From: a virus
Taxonomy: Duplodnaviria > Caudoviricetes
Strand: one strand, 5' to 3'
Virus record (IMG/VR): IMGVR_UViG_3300015606_001334
Location: 295,551 to 359,550 of that record
DNA: 64,000 nucleotides
This document shows positions 43,219 to 63,177 of the stretch, one piece after another. Position 1 is the first letter of the stretch, and each line of letters starts with the position of its first letter. The notes below the pieces were generated by a model, which made no database searches, was not told where the DNA came from, and saw only the letters and a program-made list of their open reading frames with translations. The position numbers and the translations under genes were made by a program.

Positions 43219-44562
43219 TTATAAACCAACTTCACCTTGTTGTAAACAAGTTTTTGCGATGATCGGTTCGAGTTCGGGGAACAAAGAAAGATAGTTCGTT
43301 CCCTTACGCTGGTCACTTTGCTCGATGAAATCTTGAAGTTGAGCAATGAAGAAGTCCTTCTTCTCCATGTCCTTGTTCATCACATCGATCAATCGTTTGA
43401 GTTGTTCTACCTCTAGTTCGGTGAAAATGTCCTTGTGTTTCTCGATCTGTCGAATGATGCCATCGGACATGATCTTCTTGCAGGTCTCGGGGAGAAGGCG
43501 AAGATCGAAATACTCAGGTCCTCTGATGAAGATGAACAGGATGTTGACTCGACCAGGGAAGCGAACCTTCAAGTCAGCATACCATTCCACGAAGTCTTCG
43601 AAAGAGTTGTAGCAGAGTAGATTGACTGTGGTCGAGAAGAACAAAGAAGACTTGCTGCCAGTATTCTGCAGGAATCGTTCAATATTAGACTTGAACAAAG
43701 TAAAATCCATTCCAGCTCGAATGTATTCCTGATGAGAACCATAGGCTTCAGCGCTGGCGTACAATACGAAATTCTTCAATTGCGGCTCTATGAGGTTGAC
43801 TTCCTCTATGAACTTATCGATGATTCGTTCAGTAAGGGAGAAATTGGAATTGACACCAAACAACAGCTTAGGGTTTGCCAACTCCTTCATTTGATCCAAC
43901 ATCTTCCATAGATGCTTTGACTTCAATGGCTCGCCACCTGTAACTCTAAGTACCTCAAGGTTAGGGAACAAGTCAGGCCACCATTCCCAAAAAGCTTTGA
44001 TGAACGGATTGGTCTCTTCAGGGATCAACTTGACTGGATGATGTTGCTCTTTGCCTGCCAGTTTGTATGGTCCGAATTTTTCAACCTCGTCTTGCCAAAC
44101 GGTTGACGCCCAAGGGGTGCAATACAAACACTTCAAATTACAGACTGAATCGAATGAAACTTCTACATAGGATGGGGTGATAGTCTCTCCTAGACCTGAG
44201 GCAACTACCTCATCAAATCTCGATCTAGCAAAATCACCAGAGGACTTCAGAATACGGTCGCTTATGTATTCCCCATCACCAAGTTTCTCTACGGTCCAGC
44301 AATAGTCACATTCCTTAGGATATTTGCCTGCTCGCATGTCTTCTCGGTTCATCATCTTGATTGGTGTATTGTGCAAGGCCGAAGGATTGTTCTTAATCGC
44401 TGGAACAGAGATGTTATGAGAAGGACAAAGAGTGCAGGAGTGGGTCGTACCTCGATTCAGGTAGATAATGGTTTGAAGCCATTTTGCTAAGCAGAATGAA
44501 GGTGATACTTCTTGCAGTCTAAGCTTGGTCTCTTGCAGGATAGGTTTGGATTTGAGTTTCAT
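43219..44562 (-). CDS. Radical SAM protein with N-terminal twitch-like Cys cluster
   Basis: FCLAKW...HSC...ECDYCW, CNLKCLYC, TGGEP. Confidence 0.85.
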   Translation of the reverse strand: MKLKSKPILQETKLRLQEVSPSFCLAKWLQTIIYLNRGTTHSCTLCPSHNISVPAIKNNPSALHNTPIKMMNREDMRAGKYPKECDYCWTVEKLGDGEYISDRILKSSGDFARSRFDEVVASGLGETITPSYVEVSFDSVCNLKCLYCTPWASTVWQDEVEKFGPYKLAGKEQHHPVKLIPEETNPFIKAFWEWWPDLFPNLEVLRVTGGEPLKSKHLWKMLDQMKELANPKLLFGVNSNFSLTERIIDKFIEEVNLIEPQLKNFVLYASAEAYGSHQEYIRAGMDFTLFKSNIERFLQNTGSKSSLFFSTTVNLLCYNSFEDFVEWYADLKVRFPGRVNILFIFIRGPEYFDLRLLPETCKKIMSDGIIRQIEKHKDIFTELEVEQLKRLIDVMNKDMEKKDFFIAQLQDFIEQSDQRKGTNYLSLFPELEPIIAKTCLQQGEVGL

Positions 44563-46430
44563 TTCTGAACGAAGACGTTTCTTCTTAGGTTATTACGTAC
44601 GCAAATGTAGGTAAGAAGGTGAAGGTTGAATGAGCAGGATTTGTCACCAAAGAACTTGTAAAACTCGATATGATCAGTGAATCTAAAGCGAACATTGAAT
44701 TGAGTTTCATCTGTAGATTCATTCTTCTCAACACTATCAAAGTTGGCAGAGAAGTACGAATGGATTCGCTCGAAATAATCTGTTAGCTCTCCTGCTAAGG
44801 AATCAGTAATTTGACCTGTTAGGCTTATCACTAGGTCGATTGGATGGGCAATCTCATTGTTTGAGTAATTGACCAACGTAGATTTATCTACCTTCATCTT
44901 TAAGCTCTCTTCTTTATCGGTGGATAGCACTGCATCTTTAGCTGAAATCAATTGCTCGTAATGCTCAGTTCCTTTGACGATGTTTAGTAACTCTTCTACC
45001 AAATCGTCTCGGCCCATGGTTACAAAGTAGAAAAGATAGCGGCGCAGGTACCAACCTGGAAATTCGTGGAACTTGCCTGGCTTGATGTATTTCTCATAGC
45101 ATTCCATCATCCCTTCAGTGTTGCACTCATTTGCTAGGATGTCGATATAGAAGAAGAGATAGTGGTAGATTGCTGCGTAATCGTCTTTAGCTTCAGCCTC
45201 TTTAAAACATTCTGTTATGATGCTTGAATATCGTTGCTTCTTCTCAAGGGTCTGAATTCTTTCGCTCTCTAGATGAAGCAAATAGAATGGTACCTGCATC
45301 AAAGGACGATGCCAAACTTCTTCCTCTACAAATCGATGTTGCTCATGGATTTGGTACACCCAGTAGCCAGGATCAGCAGACCTAAAAATTCTTTGTAGGT
45401 TGAATGGTGGAGAACCACTAATGTCTTGACGAGTAATCTCAAATGCGCTATAGTCACGGTCACTATTCGCCAGGAATCGTTTCAGGGTATCTATGCTGCA
45501 ACGTTCATACATTGGAGATTCATCGATGTCTACCCAGAAAATGAAGTCATAATCATCTAGCTTATCCTTTATCAGCTCCATCAACTTGGATCTAAAGTCT
45601 CCGTAATGGACCTTCTCAAATTGATTGGTAAACACTTCAACCTTGTTCTCAAAATCAACATCTCGGATTAGGTTGATTGTTTCATCTGTAGAGCCAGTGT
45701 CAAGCAAGAAGATCTTATCAAACTCAAGATGATCCTGAACATAACGCTGAATATGTCTCTCTTCGTTCTTCATGATCCCTAGTATGGCGACCTTGAAGTA
45801 TTGCTTGTAGTATAGATCGTCTAGCAAGTCATTCATCTTCTTGCTGGAAATCATTACGTCAAGGTTGAACTTGGTAATGTTCGACAGGACGACGTCACAA
45901 ATTCGTTTACTTCTTGGGTGACATTTCCAATCGTTCAATTGCTCATGATTTCCCCAGAAATAGAGCTTCACTATCTCTTTAGCGACAACTTTGAACTCTA
46001 AGTAATTGCTTTCGTCGAAAGAATGACGACTATAAGCGACATCATCCTTTACAGGAAGATTCATATGGACTGAAAGGTCATGCTCAGTCTTAGTAAGCAT
46101 GAGACTATTATTCAAATGGTCTGCAGTAAGGATCTTTATTCCACCATGGCAGGCTTTAAAGCCGTATGGAGACTCTGCAAATACCTTGCAGCAAGAATCG
46201 TAGCCAATCAGGTCAACAAAGTTCTCAAATACCCAATTGTCTCCTTCGACGATAATGAACTTCTCATCTTTCTTTTCGAAAGAATCTGCGACAGCCTTGA
46301 ATGACTCTCTTTTTGTTCTTCCCTTTGCGTCGAATGGGATGATGTTTGTTCTATTCCCTACGACAGTCCTGAGATTGAGGAGATTCTTTTCCCAATGCTT
46401 CTCATTTGAATATAAAAATATGATGTCCAT
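44559..46430 (-). CDS. Two-domain glycosyltransferase (N-terminus paralogous to 57392; GT2 domain; helical C-terminus)
   Basis: IMKNEERHI, LDTGSTDET, WVDIDE and W...IHE motifs. N-terminal VEGDN...HGGIKI. Confidence 0.75.
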   Translation of the reverse strand: MDIIFLYSNEKHWEKNLLNLRTVVGNRTNIIPFDAKGRTKRESFKAVADSFEKKDEKFIIVEGDNWVFENFVDLIGYDSCCKVFAESPYGFKACHGGIKILTADHLNNSLMLTKTEHDLSVHMNLPVKDDVAYSRHSFDESNYLEFKVVAKEIVKLYFWGNHEQLNDWKCHPRSKRICDVVLSNITKFNLDVMISSKKMNDLLDDLYYKQYFKVAILGIMKNEERHIQRYVQDHLEFDKIFLLDTGSTDETINLIRDVDFENKVEVFTNQFEKVHYGDFRSKLMELIKDKLDDYDFIFWVDIDESPMYERCSIDTLKRFLANSDRDYSAFEITRQDISGSPPFNLQRIFRSADPGYWVYQIHEQHRFVEEEVWHRPLMQVPFYLLHLESERIQTLEKKQRYSSIITECFKEAEAKDDYAAIYHYLFFYIDILANECNTEGMMECYEKYIKPGKFHEFPGWYLRRYLFYFVTMGRDDLVEELLNIVKGTEHYEQLISAKDAVLSTDKEESLKMKVDKSTLVNYSNNEIAHPIDLVISLTGQITDSLAGELTDYFERIHSYFSANFDSVEKNESTDETQFNVRFRFTDHIEFYKFFGDKSCSFNLHLLTYICVRNNLRRNVFVQK

Positions 46431-46683
46431 TGTCTTCTTGTATTTCCCAATCTAGGCTTTCGCAGTTCAAAAGGATTTGAAGGTCAGCTGCTCTATCTGC
46501 GTTTAGCTTGTAGGCGATTAGGCTTGTTCCTGTTTCTGTGTCATAAATGATTGCTCTTGGGGAAGATAAAGCAAAGTACTCACGGAGATAATGAAATAGG
46601 TTGAACTTCATTTCTCCGTTTTTCATTTTAGAGATGTCAAGTATGATGTTAAAATAGCTTGACACTAAAGTAGAGTACATCAA
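46402..46683 (-). CDS. Hypothetical protein
   Basis: 93 aa, overlaps both neighbours. Confidence 0.45.
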   Translation of the reverse strand: MMYSTLVSSYFNIILDISKMKNGEMKFNLFHYLREYFALSSPRAIIYDTETGTSLIAYKLNADRAADLQILLNCESLDWEIQEDNGHHIFIFK

Positions 46684-48170
46684 AATACCTTCACGCCGTA
46701 AGTCTTAGCAAATCGAAGAGCATCTTCCCAAGTATCTACCAATGGTTGTCCCTTGATATTCAAGCTGGTGTTGAGTAGGATAGGGCAACCAGTCTTTAGG
46801 TAGAATCCTTTGAGTAGGTTGTAGATGTTCTCGTTCTGTTCCTTATTTACTGTTTGAACTCTAGAGGATCCGTCAAAGTGACAAATAGCAGGGAACAATT
46901 CAGGGAACTTACACTTTGCGGTGAATTGCATGTAAGGGGAAGACTCAACAGGAAGCTCAAAGAACTCATGAGCATATTCTTCCATGATCATAGGAGCAAA
47001 TGGACGAAAACGTTGACGCTTCTTGATGTCATTTACCTGATCCTTGATGGTACCACCTCTTGGGTCTGCAATCAATGAACGATTACCAAGAGCTCTTGGG
47101 CCAAACTCAGCCCTACCATTAGCAATCGCAAGGATCTTATCGGATTCTAATGCTCTCAGGATGCCATCCTTATCGAAGTCTCGATCAATGTTTGTGCCAA
47201 GGTAAGGATGCTCCCAATTGAGGTGTTCATGCTTGTAGGCAGCAATCGCGCCTAATGAGGATCCAGCATCTCCTGGGTTGGGCATAATCCAAACGGTATC
47301 GAAGAATTTTTTACCAAACTTTGACATTGCTGCAATCTTTTCATTAGCGACGCAGTTCAAAGCGACACCACCAGAAATGACGAGATTCTTAGAAGGAAGT
47401 CTCATCGCAATCCACATTGCACAACCTAGCATGTAGTCTTCGACGATTTGTTGAGCAGATGCTGCCAAGTCGTAATGATCTTGTTCAGTCTTAATCACAT
47501 CAGCCAACCAATCCATACAGCCCATATGAAGGTTACGCTTTAGCTCAAAATGAGGAGGATGATCGATGTTGATTAGATCCTTTCTCATTTGATCGTAGAA
47601 CTTTGGAGTACCGTAGGCGGCCATCCCCATAAGGATGAACTCTTCCTCATTAGGCTTCAAGCCAACTCGGTGTGTAATCGCTGAGTAGAACAAACCAATC
47701 GAATGAGGGTAACTTTGGTCAAACACCTTTTTCATGTTCAACCCTTCAGCCTGCCAAATCGAAGTCGTAATGAATTCTCCAATGGCGTCCACGACTAGGA
47801 TGCTAGCATGAGGAAGGCCTGAGGTAAAGTATCCGCCTGCAGCATGGGACATGTGGTGATCCACATACTCAATAGGAACATGGCCTAGTCCGCATCCTTT
47901 CAAATACTCTTTAGGAGAAGTTGCTTTGACCTCACCCCATTCTCCAGTCAATGCTTGACGAAGCTTCTTCTTTAAAGGCTTCTCAAACCAGACAATTTTC
48001 TCAGGTGCTCCGTGATGTGCGGCTGCACTGACAATTTCTGAGTTGAGAAACTTATCATTCTTCTTTTTTGAGTAGCGCTCTGAGTGCGCGGCAAACTGGA
48101 TATTGTTGTCACCGTCTACGACAGTAATTGACGCGTCATGGCTTAAGGCGGATATTCCCCAAATAGTCAT
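46680..48170 (-). CDS. Carbamoyltransferase (NodU/CmcH family)
   Basis: HDAS...ERYSKKKND, HHMSHAA, DAIGE, GGVALNC, GRAEFGPRALGNRS, FRPFAP and LLNTSLN motifs. Confidence 0.93.
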   Translation of the reverse strand: MTIWGISALSHDASITVVDGDNNIQFAAHSERYSKKKNDKFLNSEIVSAAAHHGAPEKIVWFEKPLKKKLRQALTGEWGEVKATSPKEYLKGCGLGHVPIEYVDHHMSHAAGGYFTSGLPHASILVVDAIGEFITTSIWQAEGLNMKKVFDQSYPHSIGLFYSAITHRVGLKPNEEEFILMGMAAYGTPKFYDQMRKDLINIDHPPHFELKRNLHMGCMDWLADVIKTEQDHYDLAASAQQIVEDYMLGCAMWIAMRLPSKNLVISGGVALNCVANEKIAAMSKFGKKFFDTVWIMPNPGDAGSSLGAIAAYKHEHLNWEHPYLGTNIDRDFDKDGILRALESDKILAIANGRAEFGPRALGNRSLIADPRGGTIKDQVNDIKKRQRFRPFAPMIMEEYAHEFFELPVESSPYMQFTAKCKFPELFPAICHFDGSSRVQTVNKEQNENIYNLLKGFYLKTGCPILLNTSLNIKGQPLVDTWEDALRFAKTYGVKVF

Positions 48171-48179
48171 AGAAACCTC

Positions 48180-48281
48180 TTAGTGGTAGATGAAAGGGTC
48201 GCCCTTTTTCATGTTCTTGATGCGTTTGCGGGTCTCGAAATAGTTCTTGACTAGGAAAATCCAGTAGCGAATAGTAGACAT
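48180..48281 (-). CDS. 33-aa basic/aromatic peptide missing from the ORF track
   Basis: MSTIRYWIFLVKNYFETRKRIKNMKKGDPFIYH*. GAGG RBS, ATAAATA upstream, stop 10 nt before the carbamoyltransferase start. Confidence 0.7.
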   Translation of the reverse strand: MSTIRYWIFLVKNYFETRKRIKNMKKGDPFIYH

Positions 48282-48290
48282 TTTGTCCTC

Positions 48291-48320
48291 ATAAATAGGA
48301 AGGTTAACAGACATATTTAT
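48291..48320. promoter_or_regulatory. Face-to-face late promoter boxes (ATAAATA + at 48291-48297; - at 48314-48320)
   Basis: Both lie in the 50-nt divergent intergenic region. Confidence 0.6.
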
Positions 48321-48331
48321 CCAATTGAAAA

Positions 48332-48769
48332 ATGATCAAGATCGCACACCGTGGAAACTACAAAGGCATCAACCGTCAACTCGAAAATACCGTCCCTTAC
48401 CTAAGAGAAGCAATCAAGGCTGGGTATGATGTGGAAGTCGATATCTGGAAGATTGATGGTCAATACTTACTAGGTCATGATGGTCCTCAACACCCAATTT
48501 CCATCTCCGAAATTCTTGAAATCCAAGAAAAAGCTTGGTTCCACGCCAAAAACTATGAGGCATTAGAGGGAATGTTGAAGTTTGAGGCCCATGTTTTCTT
48601 CCATGATCAAGATGAATACACCTTGACCTCTAATGGAATCATATGGGCCTACTCTGGAAAGTATGTTGGTAGTCTAGCGATTGCTTGTATGCCAGAAATG
48701 ACTGAAGGTTTTGTAGTTCCTAAGAATGCCTTAGGAGTTTGCTCAGATAATCTTGAAAGTTTTGAATAA
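48332..48769 (+). CDS. Glycerophosphodiester phosphodiesterase (GDPD)-like protein, short
   Basis: IAHRGN...ENT, GYDVEVD, LGHD, HAKN and GVCSD motifs. Confidence 0.8.
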   Translation: MIKIAHRGNYKGINRQLENTVPYLREAIKAGYDVEVDIWKIDGQYLLGHDGPQHPISISEILEIQEKAWFHAKNYEALEGMLKFEAHVFFHDQDEYTLTSNGIIWAYSGKYVGSLAIACMPEMTEGFVVPKNALGVCSDNLESFE

Positions 48770-49690
48770 GATGTACCAAATATTAGTGCATTCTGTTACA
48801 CCATTATAGAATTCATCTGAAACTGGGAAAGTTTTTTCAGGATGCTCAAGATAATATTGGTAGTCATACTTACCTCTTATCTTCATATTGCGAACTATTT
48901 GCCAAGTGGGGCAAAAATCATTAATGATGATTCCGTATTTTGAAAGATACTGGAAAATTGTCGCATGAGGGAAAACATCAGGATTCTTTTTCTCTTTAAC
49001 AAACTTATAGCACTCAGAAACTACATCAATAACCTGAGATTTCCCAAAGAAAACGATGTCATTAGCTGGTGGAATATCTGCCGCGACAGTATTGAACAAC
49101 GGATCAAGAAAAACAGAGCTAAATTGTCTTACATGCTTTATCTCTGAAATCTTTTTCTCATAGTTTAGGACGTAATGATCCTTTGACTCAATTACCGATT
49201 CTCTGAAATAATCTAATCCATATCGATAGTCGTCTGGATTATGAAACACCGAATGTTCTATGAATTTGTAAATGACATCTGGACGAATTTGTACTACGAC
49301 ATCATAGCGAGAGTTAGTGCATAATTCTCTTGAACGCTTAGAGATATTTGAGAGATAAACTAGCTTCATAAACGATTCAGCAGGACTTAACTCAGCATCA
49401 AACTTATGGAAGTTTATTGTAACGAGATTGCGATTTGCCTCTCTGAAATCGGCCCATAATTGATCGCTTAACGTCTTAGTATCTAGAGGAGCAATAACTC
49501 TTTCAGCTTTAGCTTCTTTTGTCTCAGGATCTATATCGTAATAAGTGTAGCCATCAGTATCCCACGCATCAAAGAACCAATCTACTTGGACATCTGAATA
49601 TTTTGAGAAATCAAAGTGATAGAAAATAGATTTTTTGCAAACATCCCAAGTTCGTAGGGAGCCCCGCATACAAATTGCAATTCTTGTCAT
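48743..49690 (-). CDS. Putative glycosyltransferase-like protein (IA-x-x-RG-x-x-R ... YD-x-V-x-x-RPD family)
   Basis: IAICMRGSLRTW, YDVVVQIRPD, NDIVFFG. Paralog of 52921. Confidence 0.55.
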   Translation of the reverse strand: MTRIAICMRGSLRTWDVCKKSIFYHFDFSKYSDVQVDWFFDAWDTDGYTYYDIDPETKEAKAERVIAPLDTKTLSDQLWADFREANRNLVTINFHKFDAELSPAESFMKLVYLSNISKRSRELCTNSRYDVVVQIRPDVIYKFIEHSVFHNPDDYRYGLDYFRESVIESKDHYVLNYEKKISEIKHVRQFSSVFLDPLFNTVAADIPPANDIVFFGKSQVIDVVSECYKFVKEKKNPDVFPHATIFQYLSKYGIIINDFCPTWQIVRNMKIRGKYDYQYYLEHPEKTFPVSDEFYNGVTECTNIWYILFKTFKII

Positions 49691-50337
49691 TTTATCTTAC
49701 TCAAAAACGTATAGTCGTGGGCATTCATACGATTCAAATACTTCTTTACGTAGAAATGGTAATCGTATCCTTCAAAAAACTTCTCATTATGTTTTGACGT
49801 AAGGTACGCAATTACATTTTGTAGCATTGAAAAACGTTGTTCGCAACCTGTTGAGAAATAACCAAGGATGTAATCATCTGGACTATTATAAAACTCATTG
49901 AAAAATAGAATGAGTTCTGGATTTAGCTTAGGATTTTGGTCAAGTATCTTGAAAGAAACAATATCTTCTTTAGTGAATGTCTTATGAGAGTCAATCTGAT
50001 AATACCAAGAGTAATTCAAAATACCTCTGAGTTGTTGATTCACTTCTCTGAAGTTATTACCAAAGGTCATCAGCTGAACATGAGACAATTTTCCAGCAGA
50101 AACGTTGAATTGAATAGGATTGATATTCCTAATCTTACCTAATTGCTGCATTTCATCCAAAAACTTATTCAAAGGCGAGGCATAAAATGCTTTAATATCT
50201 ACAGTAGAGATGTAAACATCAAAAAACTTCTGATAAGGGGTAATTCTCAGGACGGTATCTATCCAAGAAAGATACGAATCGCTATACTTGTTCTCTAGAT
50301 CATTGATGCAGATACAAGCGATGTCAGATAAGATCAT
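49687..50337 (-). CDS. Hypothetical protein
   Basis: 216 aa, overlapped within the operon, AT-rich. Confidence 0.5.
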   Translation of the reverse strand: MILSDIACICINDLENKYSDSYLSWIDTVLRITPYQKFFDVYISTVDIKAFYASPLNKFLDEMQQLGKIRNINPIQFNVSAGKLSHVQLMTFGNNFREVNQQLRGILNYSWYYQIDSHKTFTKEDIVSFKILDQNPKLNPELILFFNEFYNSPDDYILGYFSTGCEQRFSMLQNVIAYLTSKHNEKFFEGYDYHFYVKKYLNRMNAHDYTFLSKIK

Positions 50338-51298
50338 TTAAACCCTCAAAGATAGACATTCTGATAAACTCTCCATCAACTAAAGGAAGTTTCGTATTAG
50401 CCTTTACTTCCCAGTCTTCAGGTAATTGAGTGTATTTATCCATAGGTAGGTGGATCCAATTGCCATAATAGACATGCTCAAATCGTTTTGCTAATTTGTT
50501 TCGCTCAGTTACAATTTTCGAAACATATTCATCCTTTATGAAAGGATTTTCAAGCAAAAACATTGCAAACTTTTGGCTAATTGCTGGGGTTTCACAGATT
50601 TGTCGATACTTTTCAAGCAAAGAGACAATCTTTTCATTAGCGACGCAATAACCTACTCTAGCTCCTGCTGCTCCCCACCCTTTACTGAAGGTATTAACGA
50701 TGACGACATTCTTCTCAATCATCTCTATAGGGATTTCTGTCTTTCCGAATTCGCCGTACGCTTGGTCGACTACTAAAGGAATACAATAAGAAGACAATTC
50801 CTCTATCTGAGAAAGAGATAGCACATCGCCTACAGGAGAATTGGGATTTCCTATCACTATCATTCGAGTATTTTCATTCAATTCAAATGAAGTGTTTAGC
50901 TTTAGTTGATTGTTGATGAGCTCATACTTCAAGTTTTTAGAAACACCCTCGTTCTGAGCTAAGAAAACGTCATACATTGGGAATCTCGCCTCAGGCATGA
51001 CCACCTCTGAGCCTCTCTCAATGAATGCATTAAAGAGGCAATTCAACACATACACTGAGCCTTGACCAATAAAGATGTTTTCAGAAGAAACGTCATGCAA
51101 TTTAGCAAGTTTATCTCGCAAATCCCTAGTATCGTTGTAATAAAGGAAATCGCTTTGTGAAATAGTTGACAAAAACTCCTGAAAAACGTAATCACTAAAG
51201 GGTTGATTGCGCTCTGACATATGAAGACGTCTCTTATGAGGATCTACTAATGCAGGACGAGTTCGCTTTATGTCATCTAGGAAGGTTTTGTATTTCAT
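50324..51298 (-). CDS. PLP-dependent class I/II aminotransferase/decarboxylase (HisC/CobD-like)
   Basis: NPNSPVG, DQAY and TFSKGWGAAGARVGY motifs. Confidence 0.85.
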   Translation of the reverse strand: MKYKTFLDDIKRTRPALVDPHKRRLHMSERNQPFSDYVFQEFLSTISQSDFLYYNDTRDLRDKLAKLHDVSSENIFIGQGSVYVLNCLFNAFIERGSEVVMPEARFPMYDVFLAQNEGVSKNLKYELINNQLKLNTSFELNENTRMIVIGNPNSPVGDVLSLSQIEELSSYCIPLVVDQAYGEFGKTEIPIEMIEKNVVIVNTFSKGWGAAGARVGYCVANEKIVSLLEKYRQICETPAISQKFAMFLLENPFIKDEYVSKIVTERNKLAKRFEHVYYGNWIHLPMDKYTQLPEDWEVKANTKLPLVDGEFIRMSIFEGLNDLI

Positions 51299-52921: not shown

Positions 52922-53793
52922 TATTTTGGTTCCATTTCTTTAGTTTTTTGGAATACTTCATTCGCCTTAGTAATTTGTTTGATAGTTCCTAAGGAAATGT
53001 CTTTGAAATCTGGGATAAGAATGAAAAACTTCTGCGCCCTAACGATTTCTAGCTCATGAATGATGTGTTTAAGTATTTCTGTATTTACTAATGCCTTCTG
53101 GAGAAGGTGAGTTGAAATCAGGTCATGAGGGAAGCTGACTTCTTGTACTTCTTCTGACAAATCTTTGAGAAAATAATACTCACTATTGATCAGGTCTGAA
53201 GTAAAGCTGTTGGAGATAAAGATGAGGTCTGAAATCCAGAGTGAAGAGAAGCTGACAATCCCTTTGTTTTTGTCTTTGCTATAAGCTCTCTGAAATATAG
53301 GAGAGAAAGCAGAATAAGAGAAGTCCTCGAATACTAAATTGCCTAAGTCGTGAGTGATGGTGCTATAAGGGACGATAAACAGGTCTGGACGTAGCTCAAT
53401 GACTAAGTCAAAAACCATGTCATTTTCAATTTCATAGTTCTGTTTTTCAAGATTTGCCAATAAACGTAGATAAGCTATTTGGTCATACTCTTCAACCAAC
53501 CCAGTTTTTGGGAGTTTTGCCTTAATTTCTTCGCTATTGAAGATCTTTATAGTGACATTCTTTTCGCCGAAGCTATCTTTAATCTTTTGAGGATTAGAAT
53601 TGTTAGCATGGTCGAATTGAAAGCTCTTTCTGTCTTTAAAGTTGGATATAGTAGAGTACGATTGGTCCCAAGTAATGAAGAAATAGTGGACATCATAATG
53701 AGCTTCAAACAACTTAGCAAAATTGAAGATGCTATGCTTAGCGTTTTCCCACTCTCTTACCTGTCCTCTAATAACAAATGCTAAGGTTTTCAT
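52921..53793 (-). CDS. Putative glycosyltransferase-like protein, paralog of 48743
   Basis: LAFVIRGQVREW, FDLVIELRPD, SDLIFI, FPH. Confidence 0.55.
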   Translation of the reverse strand: MKTLAFVIRGQVREWENAKHSIFNFAKLFEAHYDVHYFFITWDQSYSTISNFKDRKSFQFDHANNSNPQKIKDSFGEKNVTIKIFNSEEIKAKLPKTGLVEEYDQIAYLRLLANLEKQNYEIENDMVFDLVIELRPDLFIVPYSTITHDLGNLVFEDFSYSAFSPIFQRAYSKDKNKGIVSFSSLWISDLIFISNSFTSDLINSEYYFLKDLSEEVQEVSFPHDLISTHLLQKALVNTEILKHIIHELEIVRAQKFFILIPDFKDISLGTIKQITKANEVFQKTKEMEPK

Positions 53794-54281
53794 TTTGCTA
53801 ACTTCTCGGTAATTCTTAAACGATGGGTTATATAGCTTAATCTGCTGACGTGGGCAGAAAGTAAATGAGACCGTTGGAAATATCCAGAAATGTCTCTAAA
53901 CGTATTGAAGGTAGTGAACAAAAGGAATGGCTTAAATCTCGCGTTCTTTACGTTTGGTAGTTTTCTAGCGAATTTGACTATTTCGTTTGGTGAAATGTCT
54001 GCTACGCCATACTTCAATTGTTTGAAGAACGCAAACTTCCTTACTTGGAGTAGATTGTATCGCTCTGAATCATTTAGGATCATAACGTAATCAACGCGCT
54101 TTTGCTCATTGATTTCGAGATCATTCAGATATTTACGTGCAGACTTAAATGCTTCGTAAAGGACAACTTCCCTTATTGTGAAAACTTCGAACCCTTCTGA
54201 TAGTTCTTTCTCTATTGCCTCAAACTCACTCGACGTTTCTTCCGTCTTCTGAATAATAACTAAAAGAATGCTGCTTTTCAT
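53790..54281 (-). CDS. Hypothetical protein
   Basis: 163 aa, in the operon. Confidence 0.45.
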   Translation of the reverse strand: MKSSILLVIIQKTEETSSEFEAIEKELSEGFEVFTIREVVLYEAFKSARKYLNDLEINEQKRVDYVMILNDSERYNLLQVRKFAFFKQLKYGVADISPNEIVKFARKLPNVKNARFKPFLLFTTFNTFRDISGYFQRSHLLSAHVSRLSYITHRLRITEKLAK

Positions 54282-54891
54282 GAATCGCTTTCACTAACTC
54301 TAAAGATAAATCACAATTCGTATTTATCTGAATCACATTAGCGAGCGATCGTTGGGCTGCCTCTAGTCCGATACAGCTATCTTCAAAGATGACGCAATTT
54401 CTAGGGCTTGCATTGAAATAGTCGATGACGAAATTGTACATGTCTGGATGAGGTTTTGTCTTTAATCCAAAATCATTGCCAACAAATATGTCGACTAATC
54501 CAGAAACTCCCAGTTCCTCGATGATTTTTTCGATGTACACCTTTCTTGCGTTAGAAACCATGGCAATTTTGTAGCCTTGTTCCTTAAGAAAGGTAAAAAT
54601 GTCCTTCACCTCTGGATTTAGAGTGATTTGATCAAAACAATCAAGTAGCTCAATAAATTTCAGCTTAAGGAACTGTTGCTTTTTCTCTTCAGAAACGGTC
54701 AAAGAGTATTTCTCTACGATATACTCAAGCTTTTTGAAGGTTGGAATAGGGCCGAGTGTATGCTCTTCTTGCTCAGTATAATCAACAGCGAACATTTTTT
54801 CAATTGCTCTCTTAAGAGAAATGAAATTAGCATGTTCGCTGTCTACTAAAACCCCATCAATGTCAAAAATAAAGGCTTTCAGCTTTTCCAT
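54226..54891 (-). CDS. HAD-family phosphatase (beta-PGM/CbbY-like)
   Basis: FDIDGVLVD, VSNA, KPHPD and FEDS..G motifs. Confidence 0.88.
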   Translation of the reverse strand: MEKLKAFIFDIDGVLVDSEHANFISLKRAIEKMFAVDYTEQEEHTLGPIPTFKKLEYIVEKYSLTVSEEKKQQFLKLKFIELLDCFDQITLNPEVKDIFTFLKEQGYKIAMVSNARKVYIEKIIEELGVSGLVDIFVGNDFGLKTKPHPDMYNFVIDYFNASPRNCVIFEDSCIGLEAAQRSLANVIQINTNCDLSLELVKAIHEKQHSFSYYSEDGRNVE

Positions 54892-55835
54892 TTTTCAATA
54901 AGCGCTTTAATATCGTCTTTATTTGAAACATGGCTATGCAATTGTTTTGCAAAGTTCCAATTGTCATTTGGACCTGGGTGGGCGCCATCTCTGCCAATGT
55001 TATGAGGAAATTTTCTTTCAAACCAAGGTGGTAGCATTCCAGCGAATTGGTAAATCATGTTGACATCTACGAAATGATCTCTCACTGCAGAAGGGCAATA
55101 AGTTCTCAAAGCTTCGTAGAAAGTAATGATTTTCTTATCAACTTGGATGTCACTGCATTGATCGTCCCAAGTAGAGAAATAGAATGGGATACCGTTTAGA
55201 GTTAGGAACTCAGTGATGAATACCAAGCTCTTAAAGGCGTCATGCAAACGCTGAATTCCAGTAATGCTCTTAATGTGCTTATCATGAGTCAACCTAATTT
55301 CTGGTAAGGTGTAACCATTGAAATTAGGAATGAAATCATACATGGCAAAATTGCCAGATTCCTGGATAGTAAATGGAATCTCTGTTCTCATGCAGGATGG
55401 GAACAAAGCAAACACTGCGTCAGGCTTGAAGATTTGTTTTTTGACAGTGATGTAGATGTAGCGAACGATTGCATCAATAGAAGCGCCACCAACTCCTATG
55501 TTGTAGAAGTTAATTGGCTTGCCAATCTGTTCTGAGAAACGATCATTGAGAAAGCTTCCCCACATATGCTCTTGAGGAATACCTACGCCCTCAGTGTACG
55601 AGCATCCTGCGTAAAGGATTTTTACTGGATCGTTATTGTCAAACTCTGATGATCTAAAGCCGTAGGAATTTCTTTTGTAGTCAAAATCCTCAAGATCGTA
55701 GGTAATCTTTCGAGGATCCTTCTTTACCTTTTCGTAGGTTTCGAAGCAATCAGGACCAGACCAACGGTTGGTCTGGTTTCTCTGACCGTAAATCATCCAA
55801 TTGTTGTAGTTGTCCCAAAAATTAGGAGAAGACAT
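54879..55835 (-). CDS. SGNH/GDSL-like hydrolase or acyltransferase
   Basis: NSYGFRS.EF, AGCSYTEGVG, NIGVGGAS and RDGAHPG (D-x-x-H) motifs. Confidence 0.65.
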   Translation of the reverse strand: MSSPNFWDNYNNWMIYGQRNQTNRWSGPDCFETYEKVKKDPRKITYDLEDFDYKRNSYGFRSSEFDNNDPVKILYAGCSYTEGVGIPQEHMWGSFLNDRFSEQIGKPINFYNIGVGGASIDAIVRYIYITVKKQIFKPDAVFALFPSCMRTEIPFTIQESGNFAMYDFIPNFNGYTLPEIRLTHDKHIKSITGIQRLHDAFKSLVFITEFLTLNGIPFYFSTWDDQCSDIQVDKKIITFYEALRTYCPSAVRDHFVDVNMIYQFAGMLPPWFERKFPHNIGRDGAHPGPNDNWNFAKQLHSHVSNKDDIKALIEKWKS

Positions 55836-55862
55836 TATTGAAATCCAAAAATCGTTAAAATC

Positions 55863-57392
55863 TTATTTATTGTCAACGAAATCTTTGGATCCGGGATTAG
55901 CTCCTTGAGGATTCAATACCCATCCTTCTCTCTTAGCCTTTTCCTTTAGCTCTTGTTTCAACTGTTCTACATAGACACCTGAGTCGCCGTTGACTAGAGT
56001 TTGGGTAACTCCTAGATCGGTAGCTGGAATTTGCTCGTACCATTCTAGCAGGTCAGCTTCATCCTTAAAGGTCTCCCTGAAGTTCTTACCGCGACGAATA
56101 TCGTATTGGGTAAAGAATGACTTGAAGTCTCTTTCGCGGGATTCAATGCTGGATGTACTGGAGTGACCGGTTTTAATTTCACGGATGTACGCAATTGTTC
56201 TCTTTAGCCCGTCCTTTTCGAATCCCTGGAGCTTAGGATGTGAATCGTTGGCAATTAACCATGCATCTAGCTTGTCAGCAAGACGGATGCGAATATGGTC
56301 AGGTAGGGTAACGATTGACATGAAGCTTGGGAAACGAAGGATGTTGAAGCTCAACATTGGGAATGGGGAGTTGTACTTCGTCTTAATCTCTAGCACCTTG
56401 TCGAGGAACTCGTCCATCTTGAACAGACAGAGGGAGTTGATCGTCATCATGATGTGGATGCCCTTGAAGTTGCCCTTCTCAAACATCATCTCGACATTGC
56501 CTAGCCAGCTATCCCAATCCATACCGTCACGGATGTATTCAGCATGGGAATAAACCGTTTCGTTGGAGGTGAATAGCTCGATATGTTCGAAGGAATGAGA
56601 TGCATCACATAGGCGTTCAATGAGAGCTTTCTTAGCACCAAGGTTAGAGTTGACTGCAAGCTTTACCTTACATTCTGGATTTGCCTTCCACCAATCAAGT
56701 AGCTTCCAGAAGTCTTGAGACATGGTTGCTTCACCACCAGTAATTCTCAACTCCTGTAGGGAGTATTGTAGCTCGCCTTCCCACCACTTCCAGAATGCCT
56801 CGATGTAAGGGTTACCTTCATTCTTTAGACCGTAAGGGATAGTCCAGGAACCGTCTTGTTGGAATGCTGCTGCACCATCACTGACTAGGTTTTGGTAAGG
56901 ACCATTTGCCTTAACATCGCCTTGCCAAGAAGTAGAGAACGACGGATTGCAATAGGAGCAAGCAAAGTTGCAGTTGGCGTCAAACGCTATTTCCATCGTC
57001 TTGAGGTCAACGTCAGCAAATGCACCAATATCCTTACAGGCTAGGACATCTTCATCCTTGTAGATGAATGTCTTGTAGACTCGATCGCTAACGTTGGTCG
57101 CATTAAGGTCTTCGATTCTCCAGCAATAGTCGCATTCCTTTGGACGAACACCATCCAACATTTCCTTGCGAACTAACTTTTTGTATTCGGTATTGTGTAG
57201 AGCCTTAGCACTCTTCTTTAGCTCTTCAAGAGGGATCTTATGAGCGGGAGGGTGGTGACAGCTTGTCGTCATCCCGTTGTTTAGCCAAATTGACGCATTG
57301 TACCATTTAGCTGCACAAAAGGATGGGGAGATTGCGTCAATAAACTTGAGCTGATACTCCTTTGGGGAATCGAAATTCTTAAACTTTGCCAT
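55863..57392 (-). CDS. Radical SAM protein with N-terminal twitch-like Cys cluster, paralog of 43219
   Basis: FCAAKW...SCHH...ECDYCW, CNFACSYC, TGGE. Confidence 0.87.
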   Translation of the reverse strand: MAKFKNFDSPKEYQLKFIDAISPSFCAAKWYNASIWLNNGMTTSCHHPPAHKIPLEELKKSAKALHNTEYKKLVRKEMLDGVRPKECDYCWRIEDLNATNVSDRVYKTFIYKDEDVLACKDIGAFADVDLKTMEIAFDANCNFACSYCNPSFSTSWQGDVKANGPYQNLVSDGAAAFQQDGSWTIPYGLKNEGNPYIEAFWKWWEGELQYSLQELRITGGEATMSQDFWKLLDWWKANPECKVKLAVNSNLGAKKALIERLCDASHSFEHIELFTSNETVYSHAEYIRDGMDWDSWLGNVEMMFEKGNFKGIHIMMTINSLCLFKMDEFLDKVLEIKTKYNSPFPMLSFNILRFPSFMSIVTLPDHIRIRLADKLDAWLIANDSHPKLQGFEKDGLKRTIAYIREIKTGHSSTSSIESRERDFKSFFTQYDIRRGKNFRETFKDEADLLEWYEQIPATDLGVTQTLVNGDSGVYVEQLKQELKEKAKREGWVLNPQGANPGSKDFVDNK

Positions 57393-58363
57393 TATTCGTT
57401 CTCTAGAGCGAGTGGGTTCTTGGATTTTCTAACACTGTTGGATAGGGAGAATTTGAAGAAACGACTTTGCTCCTCGTCGAGGTCGGCCAGGTCGACACCT
57501 AGGCCCTTATTCAAAAGGTCCTTTAGTCGAGCTGACTCTTCACGAAGTCTACCCTCATGATAAACAACACCAGAGCGAAGGCACGATCTAGATAACATGC
57601 TGGTTGGGGCTGCTACGAATGGTGGCAGAACTTCTTCATGGAAATACTTCTTGAACCAATCATAGTCGCTGATGTTCGACATTACGAAGTCATCGGTCAA
57701 ATTAGTTAAGTACATGCCTAGACGGGTTCCGTAGATAGACCATAGACCATTCTCAACATCAGCACCGACCGAAGCCCAAATCAATAGACGGCGAAGGTTT
57801 TCTCTCCAAATGAAGTTCTTCATTTTGGTTGGGTCGATCTTATTGCCACGATCCAAGGTCATCTTGACGCCTTCACGGAAACCAGCACGGAAGGCTTGGA
57901 ATGGGGAACCATTTGGGAGAGTATCAGAGAAGGTATTTTGAAGTTGGACGTACTTGTCCTTCCAGCAGAAATCGAGCTTTTCATCTTCAGAATCTGCATT
58001 CTCATGTGTGCGCATACCTAGAACAAAGTCTTTTGTCCATAGCTTTAGACCACCATTGCCATATGCTAGGCCATTGATGACGTTAACGCTGTTCCAACTG
58101 AGAACGCAATCCTCATATTTCTCAGGAATGTCAAGCTCAAGCTCAAGGAACTCTGGATAGATAATGTTGTCACCATCGACGGTAATGAATCGATCGGTTT
58201 CTGATGCGTTCGCTGCAGCCTTATGGGCAGAGTCGAAACCCTTTACCCCATCGACTCGTTTTGCCCAAGGAGCAATGTCAAGCAGCTTAGCCCAGAACTC
58301 TTCCTTTCTTGGCTCGTCATAGGAAATATAGAAGATGTCAAATTCTGAAATCTGTTGTTTCAT
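57392..58363 (-). CDS. Putative glycosyltransferase (GT-A-like)
   Basis: ISYDEP, RVDGVKG.D.AH, VDGDN (DxD), YGNGGLK and AFRAGFREG motifs. Confidence 0.6.
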   Translation of the reverse strand: MKQQISEFDIFYISYDEPRKEEFWAKLLDIAPWAKRVDGVKGFDSAHKAAANASETDRFITVDGDNIIYPEFLELELDIPEKYEDCVLSWNSVNVINGLAYGNGGLKLWTKDFVLGMRTHENADSEDEKLDFCWKDKYVQLQNTFSDTLPNGSPFQAFRAGFREGVKMTLDRGNKIDPTKMKNFIWRENLRRLLIWASVGADVENGLWSIYGTRLGMYLTNLTDDFVMSNISDYDWFKKYFHEEVLPPFVAAPTSMLSRSCLRSGVVYHEGRLREESARLKDLLNKGLGVDLADLDEEQSRFFKFSLSNSVRKSKNPLALENE

Positions 58364-59406
58364 TTTTTTCTCGTAACGTTGATGAATTTCTTGGAAATAT
58401 TGATTGGTTCGACTTCAATCTGGGCAGGATCAATATTGCCGAGGTTGAATACTCGTTTATCTTGGGTCTCCAACTTAATGGTCCGATAAACTCTTGTCTT
58501 GTCATATTTATCTCTAAGAATAATCACTGCCTCGGGGAAGTCAAGACTAAACTTAAGATCATTCAAAACAATTAGCTTTTTGCCCTTAAATGACATGTCA
58601 ATCGAACCTGAGAAATAGTTCTTTACCATAATCTCAGTGTTTCGTAGATGGAAACGACTGGAAAAGAATGACATTTCTTTGAGGTGCCGACGGGAGAAAC
58701 GAAGATGAATAGTCTTCCCAGGCTGCATTGTAATCATCTTGATCAGGTAAGATGGATCATTCTTATTGGTGATAGCAATAAAGAAGTCAGCGTAAAAGCT
58801 TGGATCCATGTTTGGGGTCTTGATCAATACGACATTTGCTGCATAGTCGATTTCAACCTCAGCCAAACGTGGTAGATTCTTCTCTGCAGCCTTATAAGTT
58901 GAAGTGTCGATTTCCGACAGAGAAGTAAAGTCAATCCGATTCTTAAACAGATTAGATACTTGACCGCTCTTTGGTGTAAATCTAACAATCGTTTTACCTT
59001 CTGTGTTAGATGAAATATCCCAATCGTCTAGATTTGAATCACCTGATAGAATCGAATAAGCTATTCTGCTATCAACCTCGATCTGATCCAACTTCTCTTT
59101 TGACAATACCGCTGGGTCTGAACGCTTAGCAGAAATTTTAACGGCAGCCAAAGTTTCTGTGTTGAAGATCAGGTGGAAGGTTGCGTCCTTAGGGAATAAA
59201 TTCTTGTCAATAGCGTATGGAGGATCGGCATACTTGTTGACGATCACTTCTGAAGCAGACATTTCTCCATTCAGTAGCTTTTTAGACAATTCCTCTGGAA
59301 GCTCGATATTAATTGCGTAAAGGTGACCCTCAATCGGGTTCCGATCTACACCTAATACCAGATCTTCTTTAGTGTCGTAGTGAAGGTAAAACTGTGGGAA
59401 GCTCAT
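58360..59406 (-). CDS. Hypothetical protein of the glycosyltransferase operon
   Basis: 348 aa. ITNKNDPSYL motif with a similar C-terminal repeat (RDKYDKT). Confidence 0.55.
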   Translation of the reverse strand: MSFPQFYLHYDTKEDLVLGVDRNPIEGHLYAINIELPEELSKKLLNGEMSASEVIVNKYADPPYAIDKNLFPKDATFHLIFNTETLAAVKISAKRSDPAVLSKEKLDQIEVDSRIAYSILSGDSNLDDWDISSNTEGKTIVRFTPKSGQVSNLFKNRIDFTSLSEIDTSTYKAAEKNLPRLAEVEIDYAANVVLIKTPNMDPSFYADFFIAITNKNDPSYLIKMITMQPGKTIHLRFSRRHLKEMSFFSSRFHLRNTEIMVKNYFSGSIDMSFKGKKLIVLNDLKFSLDFPEAVIILRDKYDKTRVYRTIKLETQDKRVFNLGNIDPAQIEVEPINISKKFINVTRKK

Positions 59407-59407
59407 A

Positions 59408-60286
59408 TCAAATTCCTAGCTTTCGCTCCATTTGGTAAATCATATCGTCAGTCAAGAAGTCCTTAACGAAATAATGGAATGGTAGGGTTTGAAGATAATT
59501 GCCGATCTTTAGCTGACAATCATTATTGTAGTACACTGGAATCATCTTAGTCCAGTCTTCGTTCATTAGATGATCTTCGGGCCAATGTTGCAAATGGCTC
59601 TTCATGTGAACAAAGGTTGGGAAATCTTCCTTCAATGAGCGGTGAATGTTCAGATCTTCGGTACCAAGAATCTTGGCTGCAAGGCCGAACACGACGTCGG
59701 TACTCACATAGTTTGGACGATGCTCATACTTGAAGTAATCAAAGAAGAAACGTTCCCAGTTGTTGAAGATCAATTCGGATAGCTTAAAGAATTCGTGAGC
59801 TTCGTCTGATTTGTCAAAATAGAAATATGCTGAGTAGACATTAGGAAGCTCATTGTCAGTGAACACCTTACGGTAATAGTCACTTGTTACGGTCTCGCCT
59901 CGATAGGTCTTAGCTTCAGTTGCAAAGACCATTTTCGAACCCTTCATGTAGTCGAACCAGTATGACTTGTCTGAAAGAAATAACATATCAGCATCAAGCT
60001 TTACCGTATGATCGAATGGAGACATGTAAATTGCCTTCCATTCGTTCTCCAACTTCCAGGTAGAATTCTTTGCGTGATCCTTCCAAGGGATCTCGATGAT
60101 GTTCTCAGCACCAATTAAATTTCTAATTTTTGGAGAGACTAGGGTCTTCTCTTCTTTAGTTACCCCGATGGCAAGAGAGTTTCTACCCTTAGGCTGAGTA
60201 AGCTGCAATGAAAGGGCGAGCGCATACGCCATTCGTTGGTATTCTTTACCCTGAGCAATGGTGAAATATCCGTACGTTTCACTCAT
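59408..60286 (-). CDS. Putative glycosyltransferase (GT8-like)
   Basis: AYALALS, SPFDHTVKLDADM (DxD), HMK and PFHY..K motifs. Confidence 0.65.
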   Translation of the reverse strand: MSETYGYFTIAQGKEYQRMAYALALSLQLTQPKGRNSLAIGVTKEEKTLVSPKIRNLIGAENIIEIPWKDHAKNSTWKLENEWKAIYMSPFDHTVKLDADMLFLSDKSYWFDYMKGSKMVFATEAKTYRGETVTSDYYRKVFTDNELPNVYSAYFYFDKSDEAHEFFKLSELIFNNWERFFFDYFKYEHRPNYVSTDVVFGLAAKILGTEDLNIHRSLKEDFPTFVHMKSHLQHWPEDHLMNEDWTKMIPVYYNNDCQLKIGNYLQTLPFHYFVKDFLTDDMIYQMERKLGI

Positions 60287-61215
60287 TTTAGGATCTCCAA
60301 TGATTCGTCGAATTTGTTAAGGATGGACAGCTTGTTCAAAGAGTGAACGTTCACGCCTTTGATTTTCGAGACATAGAATTTGTATGATGCTACCGTGTCG
60401 TTTAGGTAGAATTTAGTCGTGGTTTTGTCAACAAACCCGATAAATTGATCAGTGTCAACTGCAGTAAGGATTGCTGGATCAGGCAACGATTTAACGAATT
60501 CTTCGTCGTCAACAAAGCCGTTAAGCATGTGAATTGCGATCGAGAAGGCAAAGTCGTTTCGATACAAGATACCTGAGAAATCATACACATGCTTGTAGTA
60601 ATGCCAAGCTTCTTTGATATGATCAACTAGATTGAAAATCAATTTAGCCTTTTCACTCTTCTTGAAATAGATCACTGTTGCCCAATACATTCGAATACCA
60701 AATGGATTGAGCCTAAACTCTGGACCAGTTAGAATCTTGTGGTCAAGGGTCTTCGCATTTTTGTTGATCAAGAAATCTTCATTACATCCCCAAACTGCGT
60801 TAAGGCTAGAATTCATGACGAAGTAATCGGCGTCAATCAATAACGTTTCGTCGTATGGGGATAGCTCGTATGCGCTTGATCGGGATTTATTTAGGAACCT
60901 TGAAGAGACATGGTAGTATTGGGTGTCTCTAAAAATTCGAGTATTGTCAGCACCAATGGCAGAGTACTCTTTTTCCCAATCATCCTTTAGGATAACTTTG
61001 TCGAAGAGCTTGTAAATGTATGCCTTCTCTTCGTCAGAGAACCAACCGAGAGAGCTACTATTCGTGATCACAGATACCTTGGTATCTTTGCCCATATTGT
61101 TCTTAACGCAAAGGGCAGAAAGAATAGCAATCTTTAGATAATTAAGGGTCGAGTTGTTCTCGGCAAACATCAAGACCCCTTTCGAGGTTTGAGTGCTCAT
61201 TTTACCAGTCGACAA
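60283..61215 (-). CDS. Putative glycosyltransferase (GT8-like), paralog of 59408; start probably ATG 61200
   Basis: SPYDETLLIDADY (DxD), WATVIYFKK and RNDFAFSIA motifs. Confidence 0.65.
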   Translation of the reverse strand: MSTGKMSTQTSKGVLMFAENNSTLNYLKIAILSALCVKNNMGKDTKVSVITNSSSLGWFSDEEKAYIYKLFDKVILKDDWEKEYSAIGADNTRIFRDTQYYHVSSRFLNKSRSSAYELSPYDETLLIDADYFVMNSSLNAVWGCNEDFLINKNAKTLDHKILTGPEFRLNPFGIRMYWATVIYFKKSEKAKLIFNLVDHIKEAWHYYKHVYDFSGILYRNDFAFSIAIHMLNGFVDDEEFVKSLPDPAILTAVDTDQFIGFVDKTTTKFYLNDTVASYKFYVSKIKGVNVHSLNKLSILNKFDESLEILK

Positions 61216-61585
61216 CCTTAGAGGTGGTTCTTAGCTTTTTGAATTTTTCGAACTCTACTAGGTACTCGTTCATACCTTCTTGGTAGATGCTGAGTACGTC
61301 TTCGTAGAAAGATTCAAGATCATCGATTTTGACTGGGTTCTCATTCGAATCTAGGATGATTGCGGATGTCTTAGACTGAGACAATGCATAAATGAATGAG
61401 ATGAAATCCTGATTGATCTTGAAGATACCGCCGTTTTGCGAGATTACCAGATGATTCTTCAGCTTAAGCTTGGAATTTTCACGCTGAATGTTTAGGGTGA
61501 TTCGGTAATTGGAAGCTTCCAACGCTTTTGCAAGACGTTCATCGACTATGTCCTCAATGACCGCAGTTTCTGTGTTGTTTGCCAT
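61202..61585 (-). CDS. Hypothetical protein, first gene of the GT operon
   Basis: 127 aa, GGAG RBS. GG.F.I...I.F and ILD.N.NP motifs. Confidence 0.65.
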   Translation of the reverse strand: MANNTETAVIEDIVDERLAKALEASNYRITLNIQRENSKLKLKNHLVISQNGGIFKINQDFISFIYALSQSKTSAIILDSNENPVKIDDLESFYEDVLSIYQEGMNEYLVEFEKFKKLRTTSKVVDW

Positions 61586-61667
61586 GGGGTTCTCCGTGTT
61601 GTTATGTTTTATAGTCTAATTTATAGTTCGCCGAAAAGACAATGGCAACGCCATTTCTAGCATTGCC

Positions 61668-63169: not shown

Positions 63170-63177
63170 TATTTATA
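63170..63177 (-). promoter_or_regulatory. T4-like late promoter TATAAATA
   Basis: TATTTATA on +, just past the phoH stop. A GCCATTG...CAATGGC hairpin lies in the leader. Confidence 0.8.

Follow-up and report, generated by a model that had tools for sequence, protein, structure and literature searches.

We analysed a stretch of 64,000 nucleotides, called the window here, which is the final 64 kb of the 359,550-bp IMG/VR virus record IMGVR_UViG_3300015606_001334 (completeness rating 100%). Positions 43219 to 61585 of the window hold a gene cluster that, judged by its sequence, consists of two layers, a fixed core rich in glycosyltransferase (GT)-like proteins and an exchangeable cassette. We favour, at a probability of roughly 0.55, the reading that a virion protein is glycosylated in the cytoplasm, with a fixed core and variable tailoring; acceptor, sugars and purpose of the glycan are what we infer, and different cluster genes may serve different targets. 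The system itself is real and widespread, its gene set being common in uncultured jumbo phages, and its biochemistry is predicted. The phage is a T4-like jumbo myophage of ~360 kb with genes for capsid, portal, sheath, tube, baseplate and PolB, the structural genes being identified by gene order and sequence likeness. It was found in wastewater metagenomes of three studies, besides a possible source sample, and the whole stretch is spanned by one Logan contig, which possibly comes from that source sample. Genes are named by their lower coordinate in the window. The virion gene, the core and the near-core enzyme are:

61697-63088, minus strand, virion protein of 463 aa with an N-terminal domain common to tail-fibre/baseplate-pin proteins and a C-terminal domain of ~320 aa
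61202-61585, minus strand, core protein of 127 aa, in 41/41 loci, no Pfam match
60283-61215, minus strand, core GT8/glycogenin-like GT-A protein 1, DxD 128-130 invariant
59408-60286, minus strand, core GT8/GT24-like GT-A protein 2; DxD 98-100, His227 and His271 invariant
58360-59406, minus strand, core protein without assigned function, a longer, partly duplicated form of a 150-230-aa family (hidden Markov model E 9e-18; family in 42/42 loci)
57392-58363, minus strand, core protein with a GT-A fold in residues 1-160 followed by a helical C-terminal part, without a Pfam family
55863-57392, minus strand, near-core twitch-domain radical S-adenosylmethionine (SAM) enzyme, NF033640 (score above cut-off, N-terminal twitch cysteines, CxxxCxxC)

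The conservation of this arrangement was followed in 59 IMG/VR loci found with 59408, 43 of which were less than 90% identical in 59408; loci selected in this way show what travels with 59408, not how frequent the core is, and counts were limited to loci with enough flanking DNA (36-42 per gene). The order virion gene, 61202, 60283, 59408, 58360 family and 57392 was invariant, with 61202 located downstream in one locus. The virion gene was present upstream in 36/36 loci, 61202 in 41/41, 60283 and the 58360 family each in 42/42 and 57392 in 41/41, so that the check on synteny across related jumbo phages, proposed in an earlier note on this DNA, gave a core order kept in every locus with room among the 43 independent loci. 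Distant matches picked from two independent protein searches kept the core order as well and included natural 59408-57392 and 57392-57392 fusions, which point to sequential action and are one reason to favour virion glycosylation. A twitch radical SAM enzyme followed the core within 10 kb in 23 of 28 loci and expanded to at least four per locus in some relatives. Accessory genes within the same distance (n = 28) were carbamoyltransferase in 5 loci, SGNH-like in 5, DUF7796-like in 4, nucleoside triphosphate (NTP) transferase in 3, HAD in 3, GDPD in 2 and pyridoxal phosphate (PLP) enzyme in 1. The only cultured phage matching the core genes was Ralstonia phage RsoM2USA (~50% identity), in which the core corresponds to ORF354-349 behind ORF355 at 215-223 kb and a second group of radical SAM, SGNH-like and carbamoyltransferase genes is located at 123-129 kb. 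The earlier note had proposed a self-contained pathway; with an invariant core, accessory genes in 1-5 of 28 loci and the RsoM2USA set split over two sites, this had to be given up.

The virion gene in front of the core also supports our reading. A profile of the 61697 family matched three consecutive proteins of phage PA5oct (best E 6e-48), which are marked in the record as detected in virions by electrospray ionisation tandem mass spectrometry (ESI-MS/MS), and in relatives the 61697 homologue comes after the tail tube gene or after baseplate and fibre genes. Virus-encoded GTs are thus linked to structural genes both by synteny and by a family detected in particles, and because the core keeps its place beside the virion gene in 36/36 loci and the family is present in PA5oct virions, glycosylation of the virion is favoured. 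61697 is a candidate acceptor, or a neighbour of the acceptor.

The model of 59408 (predicted local distance difference test, pLDDT, 93) matched the catalytic domains of UGGT and glycogenin in Foldseek with E-values of 4e-7 to 1e-6; both of these closest solved folds act on glycoproteins, which again argues for a protein target. 60283 and 59408 are a firm paralogue pair (hhalign 99.4%), the GT-A fold of 60283 following from profile homology to 59408, and the DxD motif and the C-terminal His of the two were conserved in 42-44 of 43-44 sequences. Neither matched Pfam GT8, and the match between the 59408 profile and glycogenin (E 0.003) covered the first 115 positions only. The model of 57392 (pLDDT 94) aligned with B4GALNT1 at VIA Z 9.8 (root-mean-square deviation 3.3, 144 aligned), and its DxD is invariant in 59 sequences. 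GT2 enzymes, STIV A197, the PBCV-1 capsid GT and nucleotidyltransferases all scored within ~1.5 Z, therefore the fold of 57392 does not name its reaction. The two twitch radical SAM enzymes 55863 and 43219 scored 304 and 279 bits with NF033640 (cut-off 170) and keep seven invariant cysteines; no paper assigning a reaction to this family was found. For 61202 the nearest named cluster was DUF4376 (Atlas score 0.90), a lead only; its profile found nothing in one suspected DUF4376 protein, and genome searches with DUF4376 gave no matches but were uninformative, their controls being silent too. Sequence searches of the PDB with the 57392, 61202 and 61697 profiles returned no credible match.

The cluster comprises 20 intact open reading frames (ORFs) of 80 aa or more. 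Of these, 19 lie on the minus strand and one, the GDPD-like gene, is inverted; an extra 33-codon ORF is found at 48281-48180. Fifteen of the 18 minus-strand junctions overlap, the others being a 1-nt gap, 27 nt and 572 nt, the last containing the inverted gene. The earlier count of about 19 mostly stop/start-overlapping genes was therefore accurate, as were the three radical SAM enzymes (two twitch enzymes above the NF033640 cut-off and one of the SPASM type) and the carbamoyltransferase, NTP transferase, HAD, GDPD-like, PLP and SGNH-like families, which are backed by Pfam/PHROG matches and motifs. Catalytic motifs are intact in the radical SAM enzymes, the HAD protein, the NTP transferase, the PLP enzyme, the SGNH-like protein and the carbamoyltransferase. 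The cluster is located between phoH-61697 and an exonuclease gene, ~30 kb from the baseplate genes. Its cassette reads as follows:

54879-55835, minus strand, SGNH-like protein, putatively for O-acyl transfer or hydrolysis (Pfam GDSL E 2e-4, weak; Ser and His motifs)
54226-54891, minus strand, HAD phosphatase/phosphomutase (family match and motifs)
53790-54281, minus strand, 163-aa protein, no family
52921-53793, minus strand, DUF7796-like putative transferase (likeness to a DUF7796-containing cluster; homologues adjoin NTP transferases)
52193-52921, minus strand, NTP transferase, predicted to activate a sugar- or polyol-phosphate (family match and motifs)
51295-52203, minus strand, radical SAM-SPASM/twitch enzyme (family and motifs)
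50324-51298, minus strand, HisC/CobD-like PLP enzyme (catalytic Lys motif present)
49687-50337, minus strand, 216-aa protein, no assigned function
48743-49690, minus strand, second DUF7796-like protein, paralogue of 52921 (pair firm, E 9e-8)
48332-48769, plus strand, GDPD-like phosphodiesterase, inverted (PHROG 34507, function unknown; motifs)
48180-48281, minus strand, 33-codon ORF before the carbamoyltransferase gene, no family
46680-48170, minus strand, NodU/TobZ-family O-carbamoyltransferase (Pfam E 5e-53)
46402-46683, minus strand, 93-aa protein, no assigned function
44559-46430, minus strand, two-part protein with a degenerate 57392-like N-terminus and a GT2-like middle domain
43219-44562, minus strand, second twitch radical SAM enzyme, NF033640, paralogue of 55863

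Support is good for three GT-A proteins (60283, 59408 and 57392), a fourth is probable and two further candidates (52921 and 48743) are unproven. Of the six GT-like proteins in three paralogue pairs expected from the earlier reading, the pairs 60283/59408 and 52921/48743 are firm, but the latter lacks a shown GT fold and the likeness of the N-terminus of 44559 to 57392 is weak (E 6e-4, probability 28%, DxD altered). 52921 and 48743 resembled only DUF7796-like and capsule-annotated clusters; 52921, which has no DxD, matched its Atlas cluster at 0.96 in features and at a TM score of 0.71, with DUF7796 in 11% of the cluster members and an Atlas model pLDDT of 0.59. The search for homologues of 52921 found nothing beyond a near-identical copy, and no paper on DUF7796 was found. 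A role of 50324 as sugar aminotransferase of the DegT/DnrJ type, which the earlier note had implied by listing amination, was rejected: the best matches were class I/II HisC and CobD, and no DegT match was listed. For the PLP and HAD proteins here, the capsule loci of Campylobacter may offer an analogy: their PLP enzymes produce serinol- or ethanolamine-phosphate, from which a HAD enzyme removes the phosphate (PMC11800397).

The genes from 54891 to 48743 have a guanine-plus-cytosine (GC) content of 33-41%, while 57392, 55863, 46680 and 43219 have 44-45%; by its sequence, the low-GC block in the middle was imported. The combination of NTP transferase, HAD and GDPD-like genes is met again in cyanophage S-CAM9 and, among bacteria, in loci for surface polysaccharides of Azospirillum, Tropicibacter and Scandinavium, accompanied by DUF7796-like genes in two of those cases. 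In the bacteria, the neighbours of these genes include WavE, O-antigen ligase and ABC transporter genes. A GTDB scan with the NTP transferase gave short chance-level matches only. In the wastewater run X5 one contig (depth 5) joins 48368 to 52692, skipping 4,323 bases at 5 bases of microhomology, with almost no read cover in between, which suggests that 4.3 kb of the low-GC block have been lost by natural deletion. In the distant cluster versions L063, L066 and L089 fatty-acid desaturase and ketoacyl-synthase genes follow, a hint at lipid decoration.

In the proposed mechanism, the GT8-like pair and 57392 would draw on host nucleotide sugars in the cytoplasm, start a short glycan on a protein associated with baseplate or fibres (61697 or one of its neighbours) and then lengthen this glycan, while 61202 and 58360 may act as adaptors or chaperones. 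The sugar donors of the core are probably supplied by the host, since the 20 genes yielded no epimerase, dehydratase or UDP-sugar dehydrogenase. The twitch radical SAM enzymes may then oxidise, epimerise or decarboxylate sugars. In this isolate the imported block (HAD, PLP enzyme and NTP transferase) would activate a phospho-sugar or an amino-alcohol phosphate, the DUF7796-like proteins would attach the activated substituent, and the SGNH-like protein and the carbamoyltransferase would add O-acyl and O-carbamoyl groups. Variation of such a coat could change adhesion, host recognition or protease resistance.

Timing signals of the cluster are mixed. ATAAATA, which precedes capsid, sheath, tube and terminase genes, was found 20-60 nt before a start at 71 of 133 sites (permutations without the shared TAAA core, at most 0.17) and is, by this placement, the late promoter box of the phage. 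The earlier note's promoter at the cluster head and internal ATAAATA boxes were both recovered. The signals are:

63170-63176, minus strand, late box for 61697, ~88 nt upstream
61668-61696, minus strand, sigma-70-type promoter TTTACA-17-TATAAT with extended -10, best site of the region (11/12)
61641-61670, hairpin that overlaps the start site predicted for the sigma-70 promoter, with hairpins at the same place in many relatives
55864-55870, minus strand, late box for the SGNH-like gene, 35 nt before it
48314-48320, minus strand, late box for the run peptide-carbamoyltransferase-GT-radical SAM
48291-48297, plus strand, late box of the inverted GDPD-like gene itself

The same sigma-70 site is found at the core head of the closest relative (L002). 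The hairpin may end or attenuate the upstream late transcript; other terminator-like matches were rejected, as they were at chance level. Late boxes inside the cluster and also before paralogues elsewhere (a 57392-like gene and the twitch radical SAM gene upstream of terminase) favour a role in the virion. The boxes of the GDPD-like gene and of the carbamoyltransferase run (48291-48320) lie face to face on opposite strands, 17 nt apart.

Several observations weigh against virion glycosylation. Glycosylated particles in this lineage are a prediction from genes; GT8 folds are typical of lipopolysaccharide (LPS) enzymes too, and the accessory block resembles O-antigen loci; the GTs of Xanthomonas jumbo phage XacN1, our precedent, are not homologous to those of the cluster; hypervariable islands often adjoin tail genes whatever their function (PMC7029224). 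The promoter at the core head is of the sigma-70 type, and a late box stands there instead in only 10 of 45 relatives. PA5oct assembles virions with a 61697-family protein and without a detectable core. Its homologue contains 22% Ser+Thr, 61697 20%, and since the GT core found no match in PA5oct, composition does not identify the acceptor. The earlier note had stressed the Ser/Thr-rich virion protein upstream; the virion link is far stronger than it could know, but Ser/Thr richness, a family trait, and NxS/T counts were rejected as acceptor evidence.

Similar islands have been published as devices of host-surface conversion, with GT8 dominance and radical SAM cassettes in the pelagimyophage host recognition cluster (PMC7029224) and sugar clusters in cyanophages (PMC7824862). 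Here, soluble phage enzymes would modify intermediates linked to undecaprenyl or lipid A on the cytoplasmic side of the inner membrane, and the LPS/O-antigen change would block superinfection; the sigma-70 promoter and the bacterial neighbourhood of the NTP transferase, HAD and GDPD-like genes fit this view. We nevertheless regard it as unlikely: no transmembrane segment was predicted by hydropathy in any cluster product and no hydrophobic segment exceeded 1.52, a further reason to favour the virion, and the 20 products include no membrane protein, flippase or ligase and therefore lack the membrane flippase and membrane transferase of Gtr-type serotype conversion. The core is invariant across very different phages whereas host surfaces differ, late boxes on part of the cassette would act too late for much use in a lytic cycle, and the published O-antigen reading is itself a proposal. 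Chemistry centred on the radical SAM enzymes is improbable. It would have twitch enzymes cross-link or rewrite virion-protein residues or else produce a glycosylated metabolite that diffuses, the GT folds serving as auxiliary transferases, and could draw on the multiplied twitch enzymes, on six radical SAM genes in the genome, two of them among structural or packaging genes, on the near-equal scores of 57392 with nucleotidyltransferases and on the secondary metabolite suggested for a cyanophage cluster (PMC7824862). The invariant part, however, is the GT set, 5 of 28 loci having no twitch enzyme within 10 kb, and no conserved precursor peptide or exporter was seen.

DNA hypermodification, with the carbamoyltransferase or a GT decorating hydroxymethylcytosine, has a slim chance of being the function. 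The earlier note saw no base-hydroxymethylase, which is true of the window, but the genome (G000) encodes at 39643-40545 a thymidylate-synthase paralogue with Asp177, beside two nucleotide-kinase-like genes and ~55 kb from the cluster. Asp at this position selects deoxycytidine monophosphate (PMC8670742), and the paralogue is conserved in five close relatives, RsoM2USA, whose DNA is thereby predicted to contain modified cytosine, and four uncultured phages. G000:256115-261936 (L082), with an inositol-1-phosphate synthase gene and a base-transferase-like gene (HMUDK_hel domain), is a candidate separate DNA-modification locus. Given this locus and the Asp177 synthase, this phage probably has modified cytosine, a possible substrate of the carbamoyltransferase. 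5-Hydroxymethylcytosine (5hmC) can be a substrate of phage carbamoyltransferases (PMC8670742), GT-A enzymes can modify DNA (10.1101/2023.12.21.572611), and an NTP transferase and a HAD protein feed arabinosyl-DNA in RB69 (PMC13326640). Yet cytosine-modifying carbamoyltransferases adjoin the synthase, and those flanked by GTs come from unmodified contigs (PMC8670742), whereas here the synthase is distant and the base transferase has its own locus; where relatives have a synthase near the cluster, it is an ordinary Asn177 enzyme. Three complete relatives of 453-608 kb keep core and carbamoyltransferase, and no Asp177 synthase was found in them, which favours the virion. The base transferase was not found in the five relatives by a search that had no positive control, and genome searches for Tet_JBP (5mYOX) gave no match but were uninformative, their controls being silent too; a post-replicative route is possible.

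Virion glycosylation also has a precedent in XacN1, a related jumbo myophage with Schiff-positive virion proteins and with GT and carbamoyltransferase genes beside baseplate genes (PMC5852040), which speaks for our reading. Only the carbamoyltransferase is homologous, the XacN1 GTs belonging to other families (annotated GT9; PF11397). In the XacN1 region L062:18552-25509, ORF334 matches PF11397 with an E-value of 3e-77 and is a candidate for the virion glycoproteins of XacN1; the family includes a protein-modifying GlcNAc transferase. In mycobacteriophages phage-encoded GTs are reported to glycosylate capsid and tail proteins (Freeman 2023, as cited in PMC12619734). These are small siphophages, and the Che8 GT is only weakly alike in fold (E 1e-3). 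To our knowledge, no radical SAM tailoring is known in their virion glycosylation. The core GTs of Moraphage (PMC12619734) could not be matched to the cluster families. The chlorovirus PBCV-1 capsid GT and STIV A197, both GT-A folds encoded by viruses, rank among the best structural matches of 57392, a fold-level likeness at ~10% identity, tied with unrelated GT-A enzymes. By analogy, the system would work like virus-encoded glycosylation in mycobacteriophages, chloroviruses and, probably, XacN1. The 5hmC carbamoyltransferase (PMC8670742) and DNA glycosyltransferases belong to the same enzyme families but cluster with a synthase or 5mYOX; the genes analysed here cluster with virion genes.

The host recognition cluster of pelagimyophages and cyanomyophages (Zaragoza-Solas 2020, PMC7029224) resembles the cluster in content and variability, as a variable island beside fibre genes of T4-like myophages with GT8 enzymes and radical SAM cassettes, and S-CAM9 has the same NTP/HAD/GDPD/DUF7796-like block. 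Unlike the cluster analysed here, it sits between VrlC and neck gp14 in the structural module; these islands and those of Iyer 2021 (PMC7824862), read as O-antigen change, were described without such a core, whereas the cluster here has an invariant order of six genes. With 59408, 57392 and 55863 as queries, tblastn matched no cultured cyano- or pelagiphage, and literature searches found no paper describing the invariant core or combining jumbo phage, GT, radical SAM and carbamoyltransferase. The claim of an undescribed system thus holds for the biochemistry but not for islands of this kind. From the complex-glycan pathway aimed at virion proteins, the building and tailoring of a glycan and the link to a virion gene were supported, but not self-containment, the missing hydroxymethylase, the Ser/Thr argument or the sugar aminotransferase. 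New here are the core/accessory split, the origin of the accessory block, a corrected DNA argument and a cultured test organism.

Papers explain the many GT and radical SAM genes of marine and soil myophages by assuming a change of host LPS. More tentatively, a large share of the uncultured jumbo myophages might coat tail or baseplate with a phage-made glycan, its core built by an unclassified GT family, rewritten by an uncharacterised radical SAM family and decorated by genes swapped like O-antigen genes, giving heritable surface serotypes. At 90% identity the 57392 family comprises 7,989 sequence clusters or more, and the 59408 profile finds 235 clusters at 50% identity with E below 1e-30; both are without Pfam entry or known reaction. 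If glycosylation is true, two large enzyme families would gain substrates, with a bearing on the host range of therapeutic jumbo phages and on their recognition by the immune system; RsoM2USA, cultured and with a full core, makes the system testable.

Elsewhere in the genome stray paralogues occur, a 57392-like gene, a twitch radical SAM gene beside terminase and an SGNH-like gene. The three radical SAM genes outside the cluster are located directly upstream of terminase (G000:218083-219453), next to the tail tube gene (G000:239719-240744) and at 37651-38676 of the window, overlapping the start of the DNA polymerase gene. A family without named function (F8) trails 57392 paralogues in many relatives and lies here between tail tube and sheath genes (G000:242329-242991; L001:24440-25123). 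Genes at G000:29727-35000 resemble, judged by N-terminal sequence only, the Ter stress-response set (TerD, TerC and TelA-like).

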